A stretch of DNA of 64,000 bases from Clostridia bacterium (GTDB lineage Bacteria; Bacillota; Clostridia; TANB77; UBA1234). The notes beneath the pieces are model-generated. The model worked only from the letters and a program-made list of their open reading frames with translations, ran no database searches and was not told the DNA's origin. Both the position numbers and the translations under genes were made by a program. Location of the stretch: positions 19,614 to 83,613 of the forward strand of contig JAFWVJ010000022.1 in NCBI GenBank assembly GCA_017518295.1, written 5' to 3'. Every line of letters begins with the position of its first letter. Positions within the stretch are counted from its first letter, which is position 1. Below, in pieces: positions 17,121 to 63,154 of this stretch.

Positions 17121-18447
17121 ATGGAAAAAAATGATGTTAAGCTAGTGCTAGATGTTAATGAAAAGCCAAAAGCCATACAATGGATTTTCTTAAGTATACA
17201 ACACGTATTTGCAATGTTTGGTGCAACAGTGCTTGTGCCATTATTAGTTAATCAAGGAGTAGTGGAACAAGGCGGAAGTGAATTTTTATCGACCTCAGTA
17301 ACTTTAGTTGCTGCAGGAATAGGTACTTTATTATATATACTTTGTACAAAAGGAAAGTCTCCTGTGTTTTTAGGAAGTTCATTTGCATTTATAACACCAC
17401 TAATAGTTGCTTATATGTCGGGATATGCAACTGGTAATCCAAAAGATGGAGCAGCTGCTGCATTAACTCGGAATAATGGTGGTAGGATTAGTTTATGTAG
17501 TAGTTTCATTTTTGATTCGATTAATAGGAAAAAAATGGATTGCAAAGCTTTTGCCACCTATAGTAATTGGCCCGATGATTATGATAATTGGTCTTGGATT
17601 ATCTAGTTCTGCAATAAAAAATATTGGAATTGGATCAGGGACTGAAGTTTTAGACTATAAAGGGATTATAGTTGCATTTATTACATTTGTAGTTACAGTT
17701 TTGATGCTAGTAAAAGCAAAAGGATTTTTTAAAGTAATTCCATTTTTAGTTGGTATTTTAGCAGGATATTTAACATCAATAGTTTTAGGTATGGTAGATT
17801 TTACAACTGTGTCACAAGCAGCCTGGATCCAAGTACCAAATTTTCAAATTCCATTTATTAGCTACACACCAAACCTAATGGTTGCATTAACTATGGCACC
17901 AATTGCACTAGTAACTATGGCTGAGCATATAGGAGATCATACAGCACTTAGTACTATAATTGGAAAAGACTTATTAAAAGAACCAGGATTAGAAAGAACT
18001 TTGCTAGGTGATGGAGTAGCGACTTTTGTAGCAGGTTTAATTGGTGCTCCAGCAAATACAACTTATGGAGAAAATACATCAGTAGTTGGAATGACAAAAA
18101 TTGCATCAGTTTGGGTAATAGGACTTGCAGCAATTTTTGCAATAATATTTGGATTCTTAGGAAAGTTAATTGCAGTAATTCAAACTATACCAAATCCTGT
18201 TTTGGGTGGAATATCACTTTTGCTATATGGATTTATAGCAGTAAATGGTTTAAAGATATTAATTCAAAATCAAATAGATTTTGGAAAAACAAGAAATGTA
18301 ATTATTGCATCTAGTATGCTTGTAATAGGTTTAGGAGGTGCTGTAATTACAATTGCAACAGGTGGAAATATGTCTATACCAATTTCGGGAATGACATTAG
18401 CTGCAATAGTAGGAATAATACTAAATAAATTATTGCCAGAAGAATAA
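17121..18447 (+). pseudogene. uraA: Uracil permease (NCS2 family), reading frame broken by a +1 shift near 17466-17476
   Basis: ORFs 17121..17606 and 17476..18447 are two halves of a single UraA/PyrP-like protein; each frame turns to nonsense past the junction. Confidence 0.7.
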
Positions 18448-31765: not shown

Positions 31766-31954
31766 ATGAGTTATGGTCTTGATAATCAGTATCATTTCAA
31801 TGGGTGCGGAGATTTCACTCGTGATGATGATTTTGAAAACGCAAAAAACAATGGCGATCTGGTACCGTGTGGAAATCACTGGAGAGATCCGATCACGGGC
31901 AAAGAATACTATAGTAATGGTGATTATGTGCCTGGAACTGGATACGATTGTTAA
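31766..31954 (+). CDS. Small Gly/Asp/Tyr-rich protein (62 aa)
   Basis: Strong RBS GAGGAGG; followed by a strong intrinsic terminator. Confidence 0.5.
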   Translation: MSYGLDNQYHFNGCGDFTRDDDFENAKNNGDLVPCGNHWRDPITGKEYYSNGDYVPGTGYDC

Positions 31955-31984
31955 TCGTGGAATGCACAATATTTTTGTTCTACT

Positions 31985-32021
31985 AACCTTGAGGTCGCAA
32001 ATTGCGACCTCAAGTTTTTTT
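31985..32021 (+). terminator. Intrinsic terminator
   Basis: cttgaggtcgcaaattgcgacctcaag plus T7. Confidence 0.85.
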
Positions 32022-32133
32022 CCAATAATTTCATGTGTGTCCCCAAGTCAAATTTTTGATTTTATCTCCGTCCCGAAATCATAATATAGACAAAAGAGGC
32101 GATATTGGGTATAGTAAAAGAGGAGGAGAAGAT

Positions 32134-33102
32134 ATGATTTTTTGGTTTATCCTATGCTTTTTGCTAGGTGGAGCAGCGGCTGGAATTGAATATTATTTAA
32201 AAATCAAAAGAGATAAAGACCAGTATTATTCATCTACTTATTACCGCTTTACGCAAAAGGATTATAAAGCTGTAATGAATGATACAGGCGCTTTAGGTGA
32301 ATATGATACATATAAAAGTCTTAAAAAGCACGAAGATATAGGTGGAAGGTTTTTATACAATGTGTATTTGCCTAAAGAGGATGGAACGACGACAGAAATA
32401 GATATGCTACTTATCACGCCAAAAGGAATCTTTGTCTTCGAAAGCAAGAATTTTAGTGGAATAATTTTTGGAGAATATGATCAAAAGAATTGGACACAGT
32501 ATTTGAATCGTCACACAAAAGAGCATTTTTATAATCCAATAAAACAAAATGAAACTCATATAAAATATTTAAAAGAACAACTGAAAATGATTTTTGGACC
32601 TGTCCCAAAAAACATAGCGATATATTCGATGGTGGTGTTTTCGAAAAGATGCAAGCTAGGGAAGGTGCCAGAATTCACGGCTGATACATTTGTAATTAAA
32701 AGAGAAAATGTGGAGCGAGTAGTAGATAATATAATAATGAGCAAAGCATCAAATGATATTACTTATAAAGAGGTAGATGAAATACAAAAAGCATTATTTG
32801 CTTATACACAAAAAACTAAGCAAGAAAAAGAGAAGCATGTAGAGGATATAAGAAGTAAAAGTGCCATTAATTATGAAAGAACATCTAAAGATGATGCACT
32901 AAAGAATAGGCTAAAAGGATTTCGCACAGAAACGGCAAGAAAATATCGAAAGCCACCATATTATATATTTAATGATGAAGAACTAGAAAAACTGATTGCT
33001 ATAAAACCAAAAACACAAGCTGAAGTATATAATATATTGCCAAAAGTAAAAGCAAATTATTATAGTAAAGAAATAGTGAAGATAATAAATGAAGAGAAGT
33101 AG
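32134..33102 (+). CDS. NERD-domain protein with C-terminal HRDC-like domain; contains an in-frame copy of the palindromic element
   Basis: RBS AGAGGAGGAG before ATG 32134; NERD core (EIDMLLITPKGIFVFESKNFSG); C-terminus like RecQ HRDC. Confidence 0.75.
   Translation: MIFWFILCFLLGGAAAGIEYYLKIKRDKDQYYSSTYYRFTQKDYKAVMNDTGALGEYDTYKSLKKHEDIGGRFLYNVYLPKEDGTTTEIDMLLITPKGIFVFESKNFSGIIFGEYDQKNWTQYLNRHTKEHFYNPIKQNETHIKYLKEQLKMIFGPVPKNIAIYSMVVFSKRCKLGKVPEFTADTFVIKRENVERVVDNIIMSKASNDITYKEVDEIQKALFAYTQKTKQEKEKHVEDIRSKSAINYERTSKDDALKNRLKGFRTETARKYRKPPYYIFNDEELEKLIAIKPKTQAEVYNILPKVKANYYSKEIVKIINEEK
32586..32615. repeat. Palindromic element copy 7, in-frame inside the NERD gene (encodes MIFGPVPKN)
   Basis: aatgatttttggacctgtcccaaaaaacat. 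Confidence 0.85.
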
Positions 33103-36922: not shown

Positions 36923-36930
36923 ATGCCATT

Positions 36931-36963
36931 GACATATTATTACCTACTATGTTATAATATGTA
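36931..36963 (+). promoter_or_regulatory. Sigma-A-type promoter for the HigB-like / HTH-ImmA pair
   Basis: TTGACA-18 bp-TATAAT. Confidence 0.7.
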
Positions 36964-36988: not shown

Positions 36989-37315
36989 TTGGAAATACGC
37001 AAGTCAAAAAACTATTTGAAGGATTATCAAAAGAAACTGGTAAGACTTCATAAAAACAAAGAAATACAGACTATAGAAAGTATAGAAACATTAATCATAA
37101 ATTCTATCAACTTAAAAGAACTATTACAAAATCCACTCCATATAGTTTATGGGATAGAACAAAAGCATGGTGATTTAAAAGAAATTTTTACAGCAAAAAT
37201 TAATAATAAATTAAGACTTCGAATGCGACCGGTAGGAGAATATCCATATAATTTGGTTGAAATCGAAGCAATAGAATTTTGCGAAATAGATGATAAGCAC
37301 TATGGAGAAGGTTAG
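36989..37315 (+). CDS. Putative HigB-like (RelE/ParE superfamily) toxin
   Basis: TTG start behind a perfect TTGACA-18-TATAAT promoter; C-terminal ...LVEIEAIEFCEIDDKHY resembles the HigB DYH end; next gene is an HTH-XRE protein. Confidence 0.4.
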   Translation: MEIRKSKNYLKDYQKKLVRLHKNKEIQTIESIETLIINSINLKELLQNPLHIVYGIEQKHGDLKEIFTAKINNKLRLRMRPVGEYPYNLVEIEAIEFCEIDDKHYGEG

Positions 37316-37326
37316 GAGGAAGTAGT

Positions 37327-38358
37327 ATGGTTGGTTTTGGAAGTTTCTTAAAAGATTATTTAGAATTTCATAATATTTCACAATCAGAGTTTGCTATTCG
37401 ACTTGGAATTACTCAAAAGCACATGAATGAAATTGCAAATGGCAAAGTTCCTATTACAGCTGAATTAGCAGCAAACATTAGTCGTTTAACTGGTATAGAT
37501 GCAAGCTTTATTATCAATGTTGAAAATGACAAAAAGCTAAAAGAAACTATAATAAATGACTTAGGCACAGAAAAAGCAGTAGATAAAATGCTTAAAGAAA
37601 ATTTTTCTTTAAAAGAACTTAAAGAAAGAGAATGGGTGAAGTTTTTAGATATTACTTCGCCACTTCAAAACTATTTAGATATTCTAAAGTTTTTAAAAAT
37701 AAAGGACTTGTCTATAATTCCATCTTTAGAAAAACAAGTATTATTTAAGAAGGATGGAGAAGACTTTAACAAGCTTGCATTATGGATTGCGCATTGTGAT
37801 GAAATTTGTGCAGATCAAAAAGTTAATGAATATAACAAATTAAATCTTGCATTTTTAGTAGAGGACTTAAATAAACTTGCTTATAAAGGAATTCATGATA
37901 TAAATGAAATACAAGATATTCTTAACAAATATGGATTTTATTTTGTATGTGATAAAGCACTAAAAGGAACAAAAGTAAGAGGTTGCTTTAAAGTAAGAGG
38001 ATTAACACCTACAATTTATAATACAGCAAATTATGCTGGACTAGATTCTCTATATTTTGAGATATTACATGAAATAGGACATTGCAAATCTGATTATAAC
38101 GAAGCAAAGAATAAAACTATAATAGAATCAACAGAAGAAAAGGAAAAAAGAGCAGATAGCTTTGCAATTAACAATATGATAGGTGAAGAAAAATGGATGT
38201 TAATTTTAGACTCTGATTTAACAGAAAAATCACTTTTAGATATTTCTAAAAAGTATAAAATACCTATGTGCTATATTGTTGGAAGATTAGCTAAATTTAA
38301 GAAAATTCCTTATAATAGTACTTTATATAATAAATATGACGTAATAAAAAGCGCATAG
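37327..38358 (+). CDS. HTH-XRE DNA-binding domain fused to ImmA/IrrE-family zinc metallopeptidase
   Basis: N-terminal HTH (QSEFAIRLGITQKHMNEIANG); HEIGH zinc-binding motif (ILHEIGHC). Confidence 0.85.
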   Translation: MVGFGSFLKDYLEFHNISQSEFAIRLGITQKHMNEIANGKVPITAELAANISRLTGIDASFIINVENDKKLKETIINDLGTEKAVDKMLKENFSLKELKEREWVKFLDITSPLQNYLDILKFLKIKDLSIIPSLEKQVLFKKDGEDFNKLALWIAHCDEICADQKVNEYNKLNLAFLVEDLNKLAYKGIHDINEIQDILNKYGFYFVCDKALKGTKVRGCFKVRGLTPTIYNTANYAGLDSLYFEILHEIGHCKSDYNEAKNKTIIESTEEKEKRADSFAINNMIGEEKWMLILDSDLTEKSLLDISKKYKIPMCYIVGRLAKFKKIPYNSTLYNKYDVIKSA

Positions 38359-38846: not shown

Positions 38847-39614
38847 ATGGGTAGACCAATTGGAAAATGTCACATTTGTGGAAAAGAATGTGAATTAACA
38901 TATGAACATATTCCACCAAAGAAAGCATATAACCATAAACCTACAAAAATGTATATAGGAAAAGAGTACTTTAAAGATCTTGAAAAAAGAGATATCAAAG
39001 ATACAAGTAAGTTGAGATATACAGATTTTCAAAAAGGAGTAGGTGATTATACTTTATGTGAAAGGTGCAACAGTACTACTGGTAAATGGTATGCAGGAGA
39101 ATATATTAAGATATCTAATGCCATTTATGATTATTTAGGTCATCATCTAGAAGAATTAAAAGATGCTAAATCGGTTGAATTAGATTTTAAAGATGTATAT
39201 CCCTTAAAATTCTTTAAACAAATAATTGCTATGTTTTTGTCTATAATACCAAATGAATATTTGGAAAACCATAAAGAATTAAGGAAATATGTATTAGATA
39301 GAGACAGTGTTGAATTTTCTAACAAAAAATATAGAATAAGTTTGGGACTTTTGAAACAAGATTTTGAAGGATGGTCTGGAATTAATCATTTATTAATGTG
39401 TAATGGAAAAATAAAACTAATATCATTTCTTGTTGTGGCTCCATTTTATTTTGTGTTGGAATTTAATCCGGAAGAAATTGTTTTTGATAATTTGCTTGAT
39501 ATAACTAGTATCGGACACCAATATAACTATAATGATAGGATAGCTTTAAATATAAAGTCAAATCTATTTTTAGAAAGTGAAGTTTTTCCGATAAACTTGT
39601 TTTATCATAAATGA
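38847..39614 (+). CDS. HNH-endonuclease-domain protein
   Basis: CHICGKEC...EHIPPKKAYN...CERCN matches the HNH CxxC...H-N...CxxC architecture. Confidence 0.5.
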   Translation: MGRPIGKCHICGKECELTYEHIPPKKAYNHKPTKMYIGKEYFKDLEKRDIKDTSKLRYTDFQKGVGDYTLCERCNSTTGKWYAGEYIKISNAIYDYLGHHLEELKDAKSVELDFKDVYPLKFFKQIIAMFLSIIPNEYLENHKELRKYVLDRDSVEFSNKKYRISLGLLKQDFEGWSGINHLLMCNGKIKLISFLVVAPFYFVLEFNPEEIVFDNLLDITSIGHQYNYNDRIALNIKSNLFLESEVFPINLFYHK

Positions 39615-39764
39615 AATATGCATTTTTAAGCTCTAAATAATGATCGAAAATGTAAAAACCGTAGTTGACAATAATTGAAAATGCATTTTCGAGTATTATG
39701 ATATCATATGAAAACGTAAGCCAGTAATACCAATACTTTTATCAAAAATATTTTTTCAAAAATG

Positions 39765-39793
39765 TTGACATAATTGTTGCTACACAATATAAT
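39765..39793 (+). promoter_or_regulatory. Sigma-A-type promoter for the HEPN (pseudo)gene
   Basis: TTGACA-17 bp-TATAAT (perfect consensus). Confidence 0.7.
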
Positions 39794-39828
39794 AACTATA
39801 CAATAATTCAAAGGAGAAAATGAACATT

Positions 39829-40369
39829 ATGTATGAACTTAATTCTGATAATATAATGAATAAATTTGGTGATGACATTCGAAAAATGATAGGTGACTTT
39901 TCTATATTGTGGAATCTGTATGAAAAAAGTCTTTTTAAGGATGCAGAGGAAAAATATAGAATAATAAATAATAAGAGAAAAAAATGATAAGATTTTTCAA
40001 GAGAACATACATGATGGTATTATAAAAATAAAAAGTGAAAGCAGTTTTTTTCAAAATAACGAAAATGAAATAGACAAATGCTTTTTAAATTTAAATTCTT
40101 TTCTTCGAAACTATTATCATAATGATTCATATAAATATAGTGCCCAAGGTATAATTGATTTTTTTAGGGTAAATGATAATGAAAATGCAAAAAAAGAAGT
40201 TGAAAACTTGTTTGATAATCCTGTTGAGCAATGGGGGTCAAAAGAGAAGTTTCATTTATTATTAATTGTTATTTATAGGGTTAGAAACAATATGTTTCAT
40301 GGAGAAAAAGATGTTATAAAGTTAAAAGATCAAAAGAGCTTTTTTGCATATGTAATAGCATGCTTCTAA
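39829..40369 (+). pseudogene. HEPN-domain (Abi/RiboL-PSP-like) gene interrupted by a frameshift in an A7 homopolymer (39978-39984)
   Basis: Perfect promoter TTGACA-17-TATAAT; N-terminal 52-aa ORF stops at 39985; the +1 frame continues to 40369 and encodes the HEPN Rx4-6H motif (YRVRNNMFHG). Deleting one A restores a single ORF. Confidence 0.55.
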
Positions 40370-40477
40370 TGATTATTGATAATATAGATATAAAGTTGCA
40401 AAACTTATTGTAGAACAAAAATCCTTTCTTTTATCAAATTAGTGTGAATTTCTTAATAGAAAGGAGAAATTAAAATG

Positions 40478-40501
40478 AATAAAAGAATAAAAGAATAAAA
40501 G
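40478..40501 (+). repeat. Tandem 8-bp repeat (AATAAAAG)x3 between a strong RBS/ATG and the GGCT-like ORF
   Basis: Three perfect units; the unit is not a multiple of 3, so copy number sets the reading frame. Confidence 0.85.
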
Positions 40502-40545
40502 AATTATTCAGAGGTGCCAATGTAATCATAGATTACCCTGGCCAA

Positions 40546-41193
40546 TTGTACACAAATGATGAAGCAGATATTTGCGTAGAAACAAAATACGCACAAGAAT
40601 TAAGCATCATTTATTTCCAATTAAGAGATTACTTTGTTAAAGAAATCGATTATTTGAACAAATATGATTTCTATGGCAGCTTGGCTGAAAACTACAATAG
40701 GCTAATAAAAAAGAATGGAGATATTAAAGAAAATCTTCAAACATTTTTATTAACTATAAAAACAGCCTTATACTTTGCTTATGGATTAAACATGGATAAG
40801 GAACAAATGAAAGAAAGATGCCCTGGAGCTATTCCTGTTGGTATAGCAACATTGGACAATTACAAATTTGTTTTAGACTCTGCAGGAACAGCTAGTGTTG
40901 TTCCTGAAAAAGGTTCAAAAGTTGAAGGATTACTTTGGCTAATTAATACAGATGGGGAAAAGGCACTAGATAGATATGAAGGCACAAATTTGACAACTCC
41001 ATGCTATATTAAGAAACACTTAGAAATCGAATTCAACAATGAAAAATCTAAGGCTTTAGTCTATGTTTCGAATAGAGACATTATAGACAAGCCTATTAGA
41101 AAAGACTACATCAATAGAGTAGTCCAAGCAGCAAAAGATGTTAGACTTTCATCAAAGTATATCAAGGATAATCTTGATAAATATACAAATTAA
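40546..41193 (+). CDS. Gamma-glutamyl cyclotransferase (GGCT/AIG2)-like protein with N-terminal extension
   Basis: YFAYGLNMD...E GGCT motif; the in-window frame has only a TTG start with no RBS. An upstream ATG with a strong RBS is out of frame because of a 3-unit 8-bp repeat (see findings). Confidence 0.7.
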   Translation: MYTNDEADICVETKYAQELSIIYFQLRDYFVKEIDYLNKYDFYGSLAENYNRLIKKNGDIKENLQTFLLTIKTALYFAYGLNMDKEQMKERCPGAIPVGIATLDNYKFVLDSAGTASVVPEKGSKVEGLLWLINTDGEKALDRYEGTNLTTPCYIKKHLEIEFNNEKSKALVYVSNRDIIDKPIRKDYINRVVQAAKDVRLSSKYIKDNLDKYTN

Positions 41194-41196
41194 CTA

Positions 41197-41233
41197 AAAA
41201 TAGACCATTGTATAAGCAATGGTCTATTTTTAT
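41197..41233. terminator. Bidirectional intrinsic terminator
   Basis: atagaccattgtataagcaatggtctat flanked by A- and T-runs. Confidence 0.75.
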
Positions 41234-41656: not shown

Positions 41657-42577
41657 ATGAAGGAAGAAATAATTATGGAAACTATAGAAAAAGCAAGACC
41701 TTTTGTTAAGTGGGCTGGAGGTAAAGCAGGACTTATTCCTCAAATAACAAAGTACTATCCAGATGCTTTAAAATCAGGTCAAATAGAAAGATATATTGAA
41801 CCATTTCTTGGTGGGGGAGCAATTCTTTTAGATGTACTTCAAAAGTATGATGTAAAGGAAGCCTATGCTTATGATACAAATCAAGATTTGGTTAATGCAT
41901 ATAATGTGATAAAAACGGATGTAGATAATCTTATTAAGAAATTGCAAAAATATGAAAAAGAATATTTGCCATTGGATGAAGAAGAAAGAAAAGAGTACTA
42001 CTACGATTTAAGAGATGAATATAATTCTGCAGAAGTTAAGTCTGGAAAGCTATCATATAAAAGAGCAGCACAGTTTATATTCTTAAACAAAACATGCTTT
42101 AATGGTTTGTACAGAGTAAATGCAAGTGGTGATTTCAATGTGCCAATGGGTAATTATAAAAATCCGACAATTTGCGATACTGAAAACTTACTAAAGCTAT
42201 CTAGATTACTACAAAATGTTGAAATTATCTGTGGAGATTACCATGATACATTAGAGTTAGTTAATCCAAAAACTTTTGTGTATTTTGATCCACCTTATAG
42301 ACCATTACCGGATACTAATGGTTTTACTTCATACACAAAGGATGACTTCAATGACGAAGACCAAAAGAGGTTGGGAGAATTCTATAAGCAACTAAGTCAA
42401 AAAGATGCAAAATTGATGCTAAGTAATTCTAATCCAAAGAACACAAATGAAAGTGATACATTCTTTGATGACTTATACAAAGGCTTTTATATAAATGAAG
42501 TACAGGCGAATAGAGCAATTAATTCAGATGGCGCAAAGAGAGGCAAAATTTCTGAGCTACTGATAATTAATTATTAG
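41657..42577 (+). CDS. Dam-like N6-adenine DNA methyltransferase (DpnM-like, GATC)
   Basis: FVKWAGGK motif and DPPY catalytic motif (VYFDPPYRPL). Confidence 0.9.
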   Translation: MKEEIIMETIEKARPFVKWAGGKAGLIPQITKYYPDALKSGQIERYIEPFLGGGAILLDVLQKYDVKEAYAYDTNQDLVNAYNVIKTDVDNLIKKLQKYEKEYLPLDEEERKEYYYDLRDEYNSAEVKSGKLSYKRAAQFIFLNKTCFNGLYRVNASGDFNVPMGNYKNPTICDTENLLKLSRLLQNVEIICGDYHDTLELVNPKTFVYFDPPYRPLPDTNGFTSYTKDDFNDEDQKRLGEFYKQLSQKDAKLMLSNSNPKNTNESDTFFDDLYKGFYINEVQANRAINSDGAKRGKISELLIINY

Positions 42578-42585
42578 AGGTTACA

Positions 42586-43380
42586 ATGAAAGAAAAAACT
42601 TATTATTTTAATAAAAAAGATTTTAAGTTAATAAATAAAGATACATTAAAAGCTACTAAAAATATGAAGGATAAAACATTTGATATGATTTTTGCAGATC
42701 CTCCATATTTTTTGTCTAATAGTGGCATAACTTGTAGTGGCGGTAAGATGGTAAGTGTAAATAAAGGCGAGTGGGATAAAGCAAAGTCGCTTGAAGACAA
42801 GCATGAGTTCAACAGAGAGTGGATTAGAGAGTGTTATAGAATTTTAAAAGATGATGGAACGATTTGGATAAGTGGAACACTTCACAATATTTATTCTATT
42901 GGTATGGCACTTGAAGAAGAAGGTTTTAAAATCATTAATAATATTACATGGCAAAAAACAAACCCACCACCAAACTTAGCTTGCAAGACTTTTACACATT
43001 CAACAGAAACAGTATTGTGGGCTAGGAAAGATATTAAAGGAGCAAAATATAAATTTAACTATAAATTGATGAAAGAGCTAAATGGCAACAAGCAAATGAA
43101 AGATGTATGGACAACTTCTTTGACAAAACCATCAGAGAAGAAGTTTGGCAAGCATCCTACACAAAAACCATTAGAGTTGCTTGAAAAAATTGTACTAGCT
43201 TCAACTAATGAAAATGATTTGATATTAGATCCTTTTAGTGGAAGCGGTACTACTGGAATTGCAGCTGCAATGCATAATAGAAAATATATTGGAATTGATT
43301 TGGATAAAAGCTATTTAGATATTTCTATTAAGAGATATGAAAGCTTAAATGGAGGACTAGATGGAGAAAAGAAATTTTGA
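42586..43380 (+). CDS. Second N6-adenine DNA methyltransferase (DpnA-like, beta class)
   Basis: DPPY (IFADPPYF) near N-terminus; AdoMet motif DPFSGSGTTG at C-terminus. Confidence 0.85.
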   Translation: MKEKTYYFNKKDFKLINKDTLKATKNMKDKTFDMIFADPPYFLSNSGITCSGGKMVSVNKGEWDKAKSLEDKHEFNREWIRECYRILKDDGTIWISGTLHNIYSIGMALEEEGFKIINNITWQKTNPPPNLACKTFTHSTETVLWARKDIKGAKYKFNYKLMKELNGNKQMKDVWTTSLTKPSEKKFGKHPTQKPLELLEKIVLASTNENDLILDPFSGSGTTGIAAAMHNRKYIGIDLDKSYLDISIKRYESLNGGLDGEKKF

Positions 43381-44209
43381 TGAATGGATTGGTGGATTTA
43401 GAGAGAGCATTGCAAATTATAAATACTATGTTGATTTTGATGTTGTTTATGAAAATGTCGAAAAATTCAAGGTTGAATTGAATATTTTGAACAGCTTGAT
43501 AGGTTCGAAGAATATAGAAAAGGAGTTCTTGGATATTATTAAGCAATATCCTAATACTTTGAAATGTGTACCATTTTTATTGGCTGTTAGAAGATTGGAA
43601 ATTTTAGCTCAAGATGAAGACATGCAATACATTTATAAATTTGCTCAAATGAATTACGCTCCAGAACAATATGCTGTATTGATGAAAGAGACAGGATTAT
43701 TTGAATTGCTTGAAAACCATTTGGTAAGTAGTTTGATAGACTATGCGCTTGGCGTTGAAGTAGGATTAAACTCAAATGGAAGAAAAAATCGTGGTGGGCA
43801 TTTGATGGAAGATTTAGTCGAAAGCCACATAAAAAAAGCTGGATTTAAAGAGTATTATAAAGAGATGTACTTAAATGAGATTGAAGAAAAATGGGGACTC
43901 GATTTATCGAGTATTTCAGGAGATGGAACTTCAACAAAGAGATTTGATTTTGTTATAAAAACCGACAATATGGTTTATGGAATTGAGACTAATTTTTATG
44001 CTTCTGGTGGTTCTAAACTTAATGAAACAGCTAGAAGTTATAAGATGATAGCTGAAGAAGCCAAGAATATTAAAGAATTCAAATTTGTTTGGATTACTGA
44101 TGGAAGTGGCTGGGTGTCAGCTAGAAGAAACTTGAAAGAGACATTTGATGTGTTAGAAAATATATACTGCATAAAAGACTTAGAAGAGGGAGTACTTAAG
44201 AAATTATAA
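43361..44209 (+). CDS. DpnII-family type II restriction endonuclease (GATC)
   Basis: Size, position after two GATC-type methylases and family-like sequence; overlaps the methylase gene by 20 bp. Confidence 0.8.
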   Translation: MEKRNFDEWIGGFRESIANYKYYVDFDVVYENVEKFKVELNILNSLIGSKNIEKEFLDIIKQYPNTLKCVPFLLAVRRLEILAQDEDMQYIYKFAQMNYAPEQYAVLMKETGLFELLENHLVSSLIDYALGVEVGLNSNGRKNRGGHLMEDLVESHIKKAGFKEYYKEMYLNEIEEKWGLDLSSISGDGTSTKRFDFVIKTDNMVYGIETNFYASGGSKLNETARSYKMIAEEAKNIKEFKFVWITDGSGWVSARRNLKETFDVLENIYCIKDLEEGVLKKL

Positions 44210-62859: not shown

Positions 62860-63129
62860 ATGACTAATAGTGAATATTTTGATAAATTAAAATTAAAAAA
62901 TGAATTAAGATTAATTGATGAGGTTAAAGTTAAACTTCCAGATGGAACTTTTGGAAGTATAATTACAGATAGAATAGTCGGCTCTGATGGAGAAGTTGAA
63001 ATCTTGTTAGAGGATGGAAATAGAGTAAAAGCAAATCTTAAAGATTTGGTATACGTTGATCCTGGAATTACGCTAAAAGACATAGATGAAGCATTAGAAG
63101 CACGTAAAGAGAACGAGCGTAAAATTTGA
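62860..63129 (+). CDS. Small hypothetical protein
   Basis: RBS AAGGAG; 89 aa. Confidence 0.5.
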   Translation: MTNSEYFDKLKLKNELRLIDEVKVKLPDGTFGSIITDRIVGSDGEVEILLEDGNRVKANLKDLVYVDPGITLKDIDEALEARKENERKI

Positions 63130-63154
63130 CATAATTTTGTCGCTTTGGTATAAT
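63126..63154 (+). promoter_or_regulatory. Sigma-A-type promoter for 63197..>64000
   Basis: TTGACA-17 bp-TATAAT. Confidence 0.7.

Follow-up and report, generated by a model that had tools for sequence, protein, structure and literature searches.

Two frameshifts in an HEPN-like gene of a probably decaying two-gene module in a Clostridia bacterium

Introduction

The HEPN ribonucleases (RNases) of defence and toxin systems, such as Abi2/AbiD-AbiF, RiboL-PSP-HEPN, MAE_28990, ApeA and HepT/DUF86, are defined by an Rx4-6H motif in which a polar residue (N, D or H) follows the arginine and which closes helix 3 and runs into the loop before helix 4 (PMC3710099). A typical HEPN protein has a second conserved acidic residue within an Ex3[KR] motif in helix 2. 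Here we describe a disrupted gene that shares hallmarks of these proteins and is termed the HEPN-like gene in the following. It is located at 39820-40413 of a 64,000-nucleotide stretch of a Clostridia bacterium genome (GenBank assembly GCA_017518295.1, contig JAFWVJ010000022.1); this whole stretch is called the window, and all positions refer to it. A first-pass annotation made from the sequence alone had interpreted the locus as a HEPN (Abi-like) gene split by a single-base shift in an A7 run, and had proposed a recently decayed gene, a homopolymer sequencing error or a slippage-controlled toxin gene as possible causes. We found that the gene is broken relative to intact homologues not at one but at two sites, that the same allele is present in every sampled assembly, and that the locus is very probably a recently decayed pseudogene in a decaying two-gene module, the second gene of which encodes a GGACT/AIG2-like protein.

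Results

The sequence confirmed the elements on which the first-pass annotation was based, i.e., the A7 run at 39978-39984, the TGA at 39985, the +1 frame that is open for 127 codons up to 40369, and the motif YRVRNNMFHG. The promoter, which had been described as a perfect consensus promoter, indeed matched at 12 of 12 positions. The following features make up the locus, with positions in the hidden Markov model (HMM) of the protein family given for the three coding pieces:

39765-39793, plus strand: perfect sigma-70-type promoter (TTGACA-17 nt-TATAAT, 12/12 match) upstream of the broken gene
39813-39816, plus strand: ribosome-binding site GGAG ahead of ATG 39820 and ATG 39829, read from the sequence
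39820-39987, plus strand: pseudogene piece 1, frame 1, N-terminal, ended by TGA 39985-39987; HMM positions 10-61, E = 1e-9
39978-39984, plus strand: first frameshift site, an A7 run with one A beyond what the frame needs
39986-40369, plus strand: pseudogene piece 2, frame 2, domain core, 127 codons; HMM positions 49-161, E = 1e-24
40332-40345, plus strand: second frameshift site, one base missing, most likely in the A4 run 40332-40335 (repair gives DQKELF) or else in the T6 run 40340-40345
40336-40413, plus strand: pseudogene piece 3, back in frame 1, conserved C-terminal helix ELFCICNSMLLMIIDNIDIKLQNLL and TAG 40411-40413; HMM positions 145-175, E = 9e-5

Piece 1 includes the conserved DFSILWNLYE helix and comprises 55 codons from ATG 39820 and 52 codons from ATG 39829. 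The 52 codons assigned to the N-terminal part in the first-pass annotation hold for the second of these starts, which is favoured because the homologues begin with MYE... and align with ATG 39829. In frame 1, AGA AAA AAA is followed by the TGA at 39985-39987 and directly afterwards by TAA. Piece 2 carries the sequence RVRNNMFHG at 40277-40303 with R155 encoded at 40283-40285 and H160 at 40298-40300, and ends with the non-homologous tail SFFAYVIACF and TAA 40367-40369.

Removal of one A from the A7 run had been expected to restore a single open reading frame (ORF) of about 180 codons. An ORF of 182 codons does arise in this way, but its product is still truncated, as the conserved C-terminal helix is missing. 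A search with this singly repaired 182-aa protein identified 22 intact, unnamed homologues of 182-203 aa with 29-48% identity, which covered both halves of the query. Following ...KLxxQ, all aligned homologues read KELFxICNxxLxxLLxPIE..., whereas the window reads KSFFAYVIACF-stop. The conserved ending of the family is nevertheless present in the window as KELFCICNSMLLMIIDNIDIKLQNLL in frame 1, with a TAG at 40411-40413. Removal of one A thus fails to restore the gene because, in addition to the surplus A, one base is missing near 40332-40345, and the single-base shift has to be replaced by two shifts.

The versions of the protein were scored with a family HMM that had been built without the window sequence. 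The score was 118.7 bits for the protein repaired at the A7 run only, and it increased to 138.9 bits for the doubly repaired 197-aa protein when the second repair was made in the A run and to 135.5 bits when it was made in the T run. Even the frame-1 tail alone was recognized (14.2 bits, E = 1e-5). In a six-frame HMM search the window gene fell into three pieces, whereas about 25 of about 25 distinct homologous loci elsewhere consisted of one uninterrupted ORF; in loci outside this lineage, this single ORF spanned HMM positions ~5-175. These comparisons point to a second frameshift caused by the loss of one base, most likely from the A4 run at 40332-40335. No conserved residue has been lost in the broken gene, and promoter and ribosome-binding site are intact.

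To assess the distribution of this allele, we made use of the upstream gene (38847-39614), whose 255-aa product has exact matches on 27 contigs of public assemblies. Via this product and related look-ups, contigs from five different samples and assemblers were retrieved (L014, sample ERZ28018792; L015, sample ERZ28653974; L016, sample ERZ27256870; L017, sample SRR31077518; L018, sample SRR12529272). The segment 39700-40560 was base-for-base identical in the window and in all five, except for an 8-bp repeat in L016 that is described below. The truncated product of the HEPN-like gene was present as the 52-aa form on 26 contigs and as the 55-aa form on one, which equals the count for the intact upstream gene. 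In GenBank, the 55-aa form (MBR3281602.1, from an uncultured Clostridia bacterium metagenome-assembled genome) and the C-terminal fragment (MBR3281603.1) are listed as separate hypothetical proteins. Thus, the frame of this gene is broken relative to intact homologues in real sequence, as is characteristic for a frameshift pseudogene. Among 15 billion proteins, we found no product that would correspond to an A5, A6, A8 or A9 tract or to a repair of the second site, and when JGI metagenomes were searched with a DNA pattern for length variants of the A run, no copy of the locus was detected. With regard to the suggested check of orthologues for A6 versus A7, no other tract length is on record, and the approximately 25 homologous loci were uninterrupted rather than equally disrupted. 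Two apparent protein variants on L017 and L018, P0025 and P0031, were rejected as artefacts, since the Logan gene calls for these contigs read TGA as Trp on DNA identical to the window, which resulted in a 53-aa product (...KKW) and a 260-aa product.

When 1.84 billion representative proteins were searched with a profile, 739 relatives were obtained at E ≤ 1e-3, most of which have a length of 150-200 aa. In 147 of the relatives, R155 and H160 were the sole invariant columns, and they were also invariant in an alignment (A4) built without the window sequence. Residues F27, W31, E35, R153, N156, N157, F159, G161, K163 and F175 were at least 90% conserved, which gives the family signature hhWNLaE ... 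RxRNNxFHGxK ... QxELF. The family therefore shows an invariant Rx4H motif within the Rx4-6H definition as well as the polar residue after the arginine, N156 being at least 90% conserved in the 147 sequences. In the AlphaFold2 (AF2) model of the repaired protein (pLDDT 81), the motif closes the helix formed by residues 140-159, which is followed by a loop and a helix of residues 165-186. The model of a 148-aa relative (pLDDT 84) has the same layout, with a helix of residues 106-123, a loop and further helices. The predicted position of the motif agrees in both models with that described for Rx4-6H in PMC3710099. E35, which is part of WNLYE, is located in the first predicted long helix and outside an Ex3[KR] context.

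The label HEPN (Abi-like) given by the first-pass annotation is thus plausible with respect to the invariant Rx4H and the predicted topology, but it was not backed by a match to any HEPN or Abi model. The repaired protein, for which a scan against HEPN families had been recommended, matched no model of Pfam, NCBIfam or PADLOC, and none of the 147 relatives reached a HEPN model of Pfam at E ≤ 0.01. Matches to Abi_2, AbiU2, AbiV, AbiJ or any PADLOC model were likewise not obtained, so the protein was not assigned to a known Abi family. A profile search of Protein Data Bank (PDB) sequences gave zero matches, and the search of PHROGs gave nothing more than weak matches to families of unknown function. 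Foldseek returned no significant match, with HepT, 1wwp and HepS among the top 50 at E = 3.5-6.7. Three matches named 'hypothetical protein' were found by tblastn against plasmids and none against phages; the source names in the wide-profile homologue search were all 'hypothetical protein', too, without Pfam labels. On the basis of motif and models, we term this family HEPN-like and consider it to be probably a new HEPN family.

Downstream of distant family members, a conserved ORF of about 105 aa was observed on three contigs (L007, L009, L010), with a slight overlap in L007 and L009. A segment similar to it, as judged by eye, seems to be fused to the C-terminus of a 304-aa protein (P0043). 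Possibly, this ORF supplies a partner or antitoxin to the subfamily that has no GGACT gene.

The gene downstream of the broken gene encodes the GGACT/AIG2-like protein and is followed by a hairpin:

40475-41193, plus strand: GGACT/AIG2-like partner gene, starting at ATG 40475, remainder open from 40546 to 41193
41195-41232, no strand assigned: terminator-like hairpin just past the GGACT stop, the only one in the scanned segment 38700-41700

Three copies of AATAAAAG (40478-40501) create an in-frame TAA at 40496-40498, which is codon 8 of this gene. The three-copy allele was present on 26 contigs, whereas one contig (L016) had two copies and encodes an intact 236-aa protein. Among the copy numbers tried (0-7), only two leave the frame open; with at least three copies the repeat itself supplies the stop. 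The HEPN-like gene of the two-copy contig carries both frameshifts as well, and therefore both 8-bp alleles sit on an already broken HEPN-like background. Furthermore, the GGACT protein of the window has the sequence YGLNM at a position at which YGSN[ML] is present in each of the five homologues compared, i.e., Ser is replaced by Leu in the conserved YGSN motif. The hairpin was called on the minus strand by the scan, and as its stem is palindromic, it may work in both directions. The arrangement suggests that the HEPN-like gene and the GGACT gene are transcribed as a single unit from the promoter at 39765. Upstream of this promoter, the palindrome GAAAATGCATTTTC was noticed by eye at 39677-39690. 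A role as operator was rejected because the window shows no enrichment of the core motif of this palindrome.

In all close relatives, the family gene heads a same-strand cluster that ends with a GGACT/AIG2-like gene. A conserved gene for a protein of about 290-300 aa is located between the two in L001, L002/L024, L004, L021, L025 and L026. In L006, the GGACT gene directly adjoins the family gene and is followed by the same DpnII-type restriction-modification (R-M) system as in the window. The protein identity between L006 and the window drops steadily toward the HEPN-like gene:

DpnII: 89.6%
second methylase: 87.5%
Dam-like methylase: 81.7%
GGACT: 70.9%
HEPN-like gene: 37.6%

The R-M system of the window (41657-44209) is complete, consisting of a D12-class Dam-like methylase, an N6_N4 methylase and the DpnII endonuclease, and is syntenic with L006 at 82-90% identity. 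Distant relatives of the HEPN-like gene lack the GGACT gene and have DUF262/GmrSD-HNH nucleases, methylases, and McrBC-like or AbiE-like genes as neighbours. The same kind of neighbourhoods is given for Abi2, RiboL-PSP and MAE_28990 in PMC3710099. Closer GGACT orthologues (L019, L020) yielded no near orthologue of the broken gene because their upstream gene is a different one. Searches of the literature library used here revealed nothing relevant that links HEPN with AIG2/GGACT, AIG2 with anti-phage systems or GGACT with defence.

Perfect TTGACA-N17-TATAAT sites occur three times in the window (36929-36958, 39765-39793, 63126-63154), compared to 0.18 expected by chance. The first of these precedes an operon (36989-38358) composed of a 108-aa ORF and a gene for a 343-aa protein with a helix-turn-helix domain and a HEIGH motif. 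The latter protein matches PADLOC PD-Lambda-2_B (E = 4.6e-19), and a known candidate defence system may thus be represented in part just upstream.

Another frameshift was found in a uracil/xanthine permease gene (Pfam Xan_ur_permease, 17121-18447), in which a shift near 17465-17475, outside a homopolymer, leaves two ORFs of 161 and 323 aa. Its truncated 161-aa product is present on 26 contigs. This is a second fixed frameshift pseudogene, and such pseudogenes are therefore not confined to the island of the HEPN-like gene. In addition, the start of a NERD-HRDC gene (32035-33102) overlaps with a preceding ORF of 103 aa (31773-32084) that has no Pfam hit, and other assemblies call genes of 62 and 322 aa at 31773-33102. 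This might be another disrupted 5′ end.

Discussion

The results very probably reflect a recently decayed pseudogene within a two-gene module that is itself decaying, and of the causes considered by the first-pass annotation it is this one that the two disruptions relative to intact homologues and the uniform allele in every sampled assembly support. The ancestor would have been a protein of about 195 aa from an unannotated family with hallmarks of a HEPN-type metal-independent RNase and with R155/H160 of RxRNNxFHGxK as putative catalytic pair. Two independent homopolymer indels, an extension from A6 to A7 at 39978-39984 and the loss of one base near 40332-40345, have separated the gene into three pieces, so that only an N-terminal stub of 52-55 residues can be made from the intact strong promoter and ribosome-binding site. 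By analogy to its intact relatives, in which the gene heads a small operon in defence islands and is followed by the GGACT/AIG2-like gene, often with the gene of about 300 aa in between, the intact protein may have been a toxic RNase effector. In this lineage the whole module appears to be in decay, the GGACT partner being cut by the 8-bp tandem duplication and altered by the Ser-to-Leu exchange in YGSN. As both repeat alleles are found on the broken background, the HEPN-like gene might have decayed first. The decay was probably very recent, because missense changes at conserved sites are absent and the regulatory signals are intact.

Several observations weigh against this interpretation. Both indels are located in homopolymers and thus belong to the class of mutations that reverts most easily. 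The promoter, the ribosome-binding site and all conserved residues have been preserved, all three pieces keep an open frame until the homology passes into the next one, and the 8-bp repeat of the partner is polymorphic with two versus three copies. The sampled population is near-clonal (0-4 single nucleotide polymorphisms per 12 kb), and for this reason the ubiquity of the allele is hardly informative on when the mutations arose; moreover, the tract lengths come from consensus assemblies, not from reads. With respect to the function of the ancestor, neither profile nor fold searches gave a significant match in favour of the HEPN assignment. The best HEPN matches of Pfam in a scan up to E ≤ 10 were sub-threshold, namely DUF4209 (E = 0.045) and HEPN_Apea (E = 0.16), each in 2 of the 147 members; both are counted as HEPN in PMC3710099.

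A tentative and rather unlikely proposal concerns the intact relatives, which might represent an undescribed defence module composed of a HEPN-like RNase, usually a weakly winged helix-turn-helix-like protein of about 300 aa, and a GGACT/AIG2-like enzyme. The RNase would then form a new HEPN clade with a partner never linked to HEPN toxins, and in the lineage studied here slippage-type mutations would keep the module switched off, while the 8-bp repeat of the GGACT gene would continue to alternate between two and three copies.

Among the alternatives to recent decay, slippage of the A7 run could toggle the toxin on and off and make it a phase-variable contingency gene in parallel to the 8-bp repeat of its neighbour. 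The break in a homopolymer beneath a perfect promoter and the polymorphism of the adjacent GGACT repeat (three copies on 26 contigs, two copies on one) would fit this idea, which we nevertheless regard as quite improbable. The approximately 27 contigs all have A7, tracts of A5, A6, A8 or A9 are unrecorded, and an A6 allele would still lack the conserved last helix, so that two independent events rather than a single change would be needed to restore the ORF. Poly-A tracts of seven are also shorter than the lengths that are usually hypermutable. Finally, the A7 run is ordinary for the window, which has a G+C content of 31% and contains 46 A/T runs of at least seven bases (32 A7, 13 T7 and one T8). 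The slippage-controlled toxin gene suggested by the first-pass annotation is therefore unsupported.

It is very improbable that the stub of 52-55 aa is itself a functional product, e.g., a dominant-negative or antitoxin-like fragment. Its promoter, ribosome-binding site and first helix (DFSILWNLYE) are intact and gene calling recovers it on 27 contigs, but except for the fragments of this lineage, no member of such a size occurs among the 739 relatives. The near-clonal population gives no sign of selection, and the homology that continues downstream in other frames argues for a recent truncation.

Programmed recoding could in principle provide some full-length protein, either by a prfB-like +1 shift at AAA-AAA-UGA followed by a -1 shift of tRNA-Lys on A-AAG at 40333-40336 or by transcriptional slippage. 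Both sites are formally slippery, and a -1 slip on CAA-AAG-A leads to ...DQKELF..., as in the homologues. This explanation is extremely improbable, as the homologous loci (~25 of ~25) have one ORF and thus do not share the shift, a stimulatory element was not seen by eye in the sequence, and two low-efficiency events in series would result in a negligible amount of product.

A miscounted A7 run has a practically negligible probability: homopolymer indels are the classic type of sequencing and assembly error and one assembly alone could not exclude it, but the identity of 39700-40560 in five samples and assemblers, the truncated product on 27 contigs and the second independent frameshift in the same gene refute it.

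If recent decay is correct, the broken gene itself is of little import, being a decayed accessory gene and not a switch. It teaches that the repair of a single homopolymer may seem persuasive even if a further frameshift downstream has gone unnoticed. A by-product of the analysis is a family of about 740 representatives with an invariant Rx4H that is uncovered by Pfam, NCBIfam and PADLOC. Its closest subfamily is consistently paired with a GGACT/AIG2-like gene in defence islands, and this pairing can be tested with an intact homologue (P0001, P0003).

Compared to the HEPN RNases of defence and toxin systems introduced above (PMC3710099), the family is alike in its invariant Rx4H with Asn after the Arg, in the predicted position of the motif where a long helix ends and the loop toward the last helix begins, and in being small, all-alpha and standalone. 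Its genes are also found in R-M and defence islands beside ParB/DUF262 (GmrSD_N)-HNH nucleases and methylases (L006, L008, L010). It differs in lacking a significant match to the HEPN clan of Pfam, to PADLOC, NCBIfam or in Foldseek, in the location of E35 outside Ex3[KR], and in the GGACT partner, which is unreported for any HEPN family. Simple-sequence contingency loci resemble the locus in that a homopolymer interrupts the 5′ part of a strongly promoted gene next to a repeat-number polymorphism. Unlike in such loci, the A7 tract is short and common, shows no length polymorphism on about 27 contigs, and two repairs are required. The closest correspondence is to ordinary frameshift pseudogenes in decaying accessory modules, with which the locus shares multiple disruptions, a damaged partner and a permease pseudogene in the same window; there is no material difference to these, the decay in the present case being apparently very recent.
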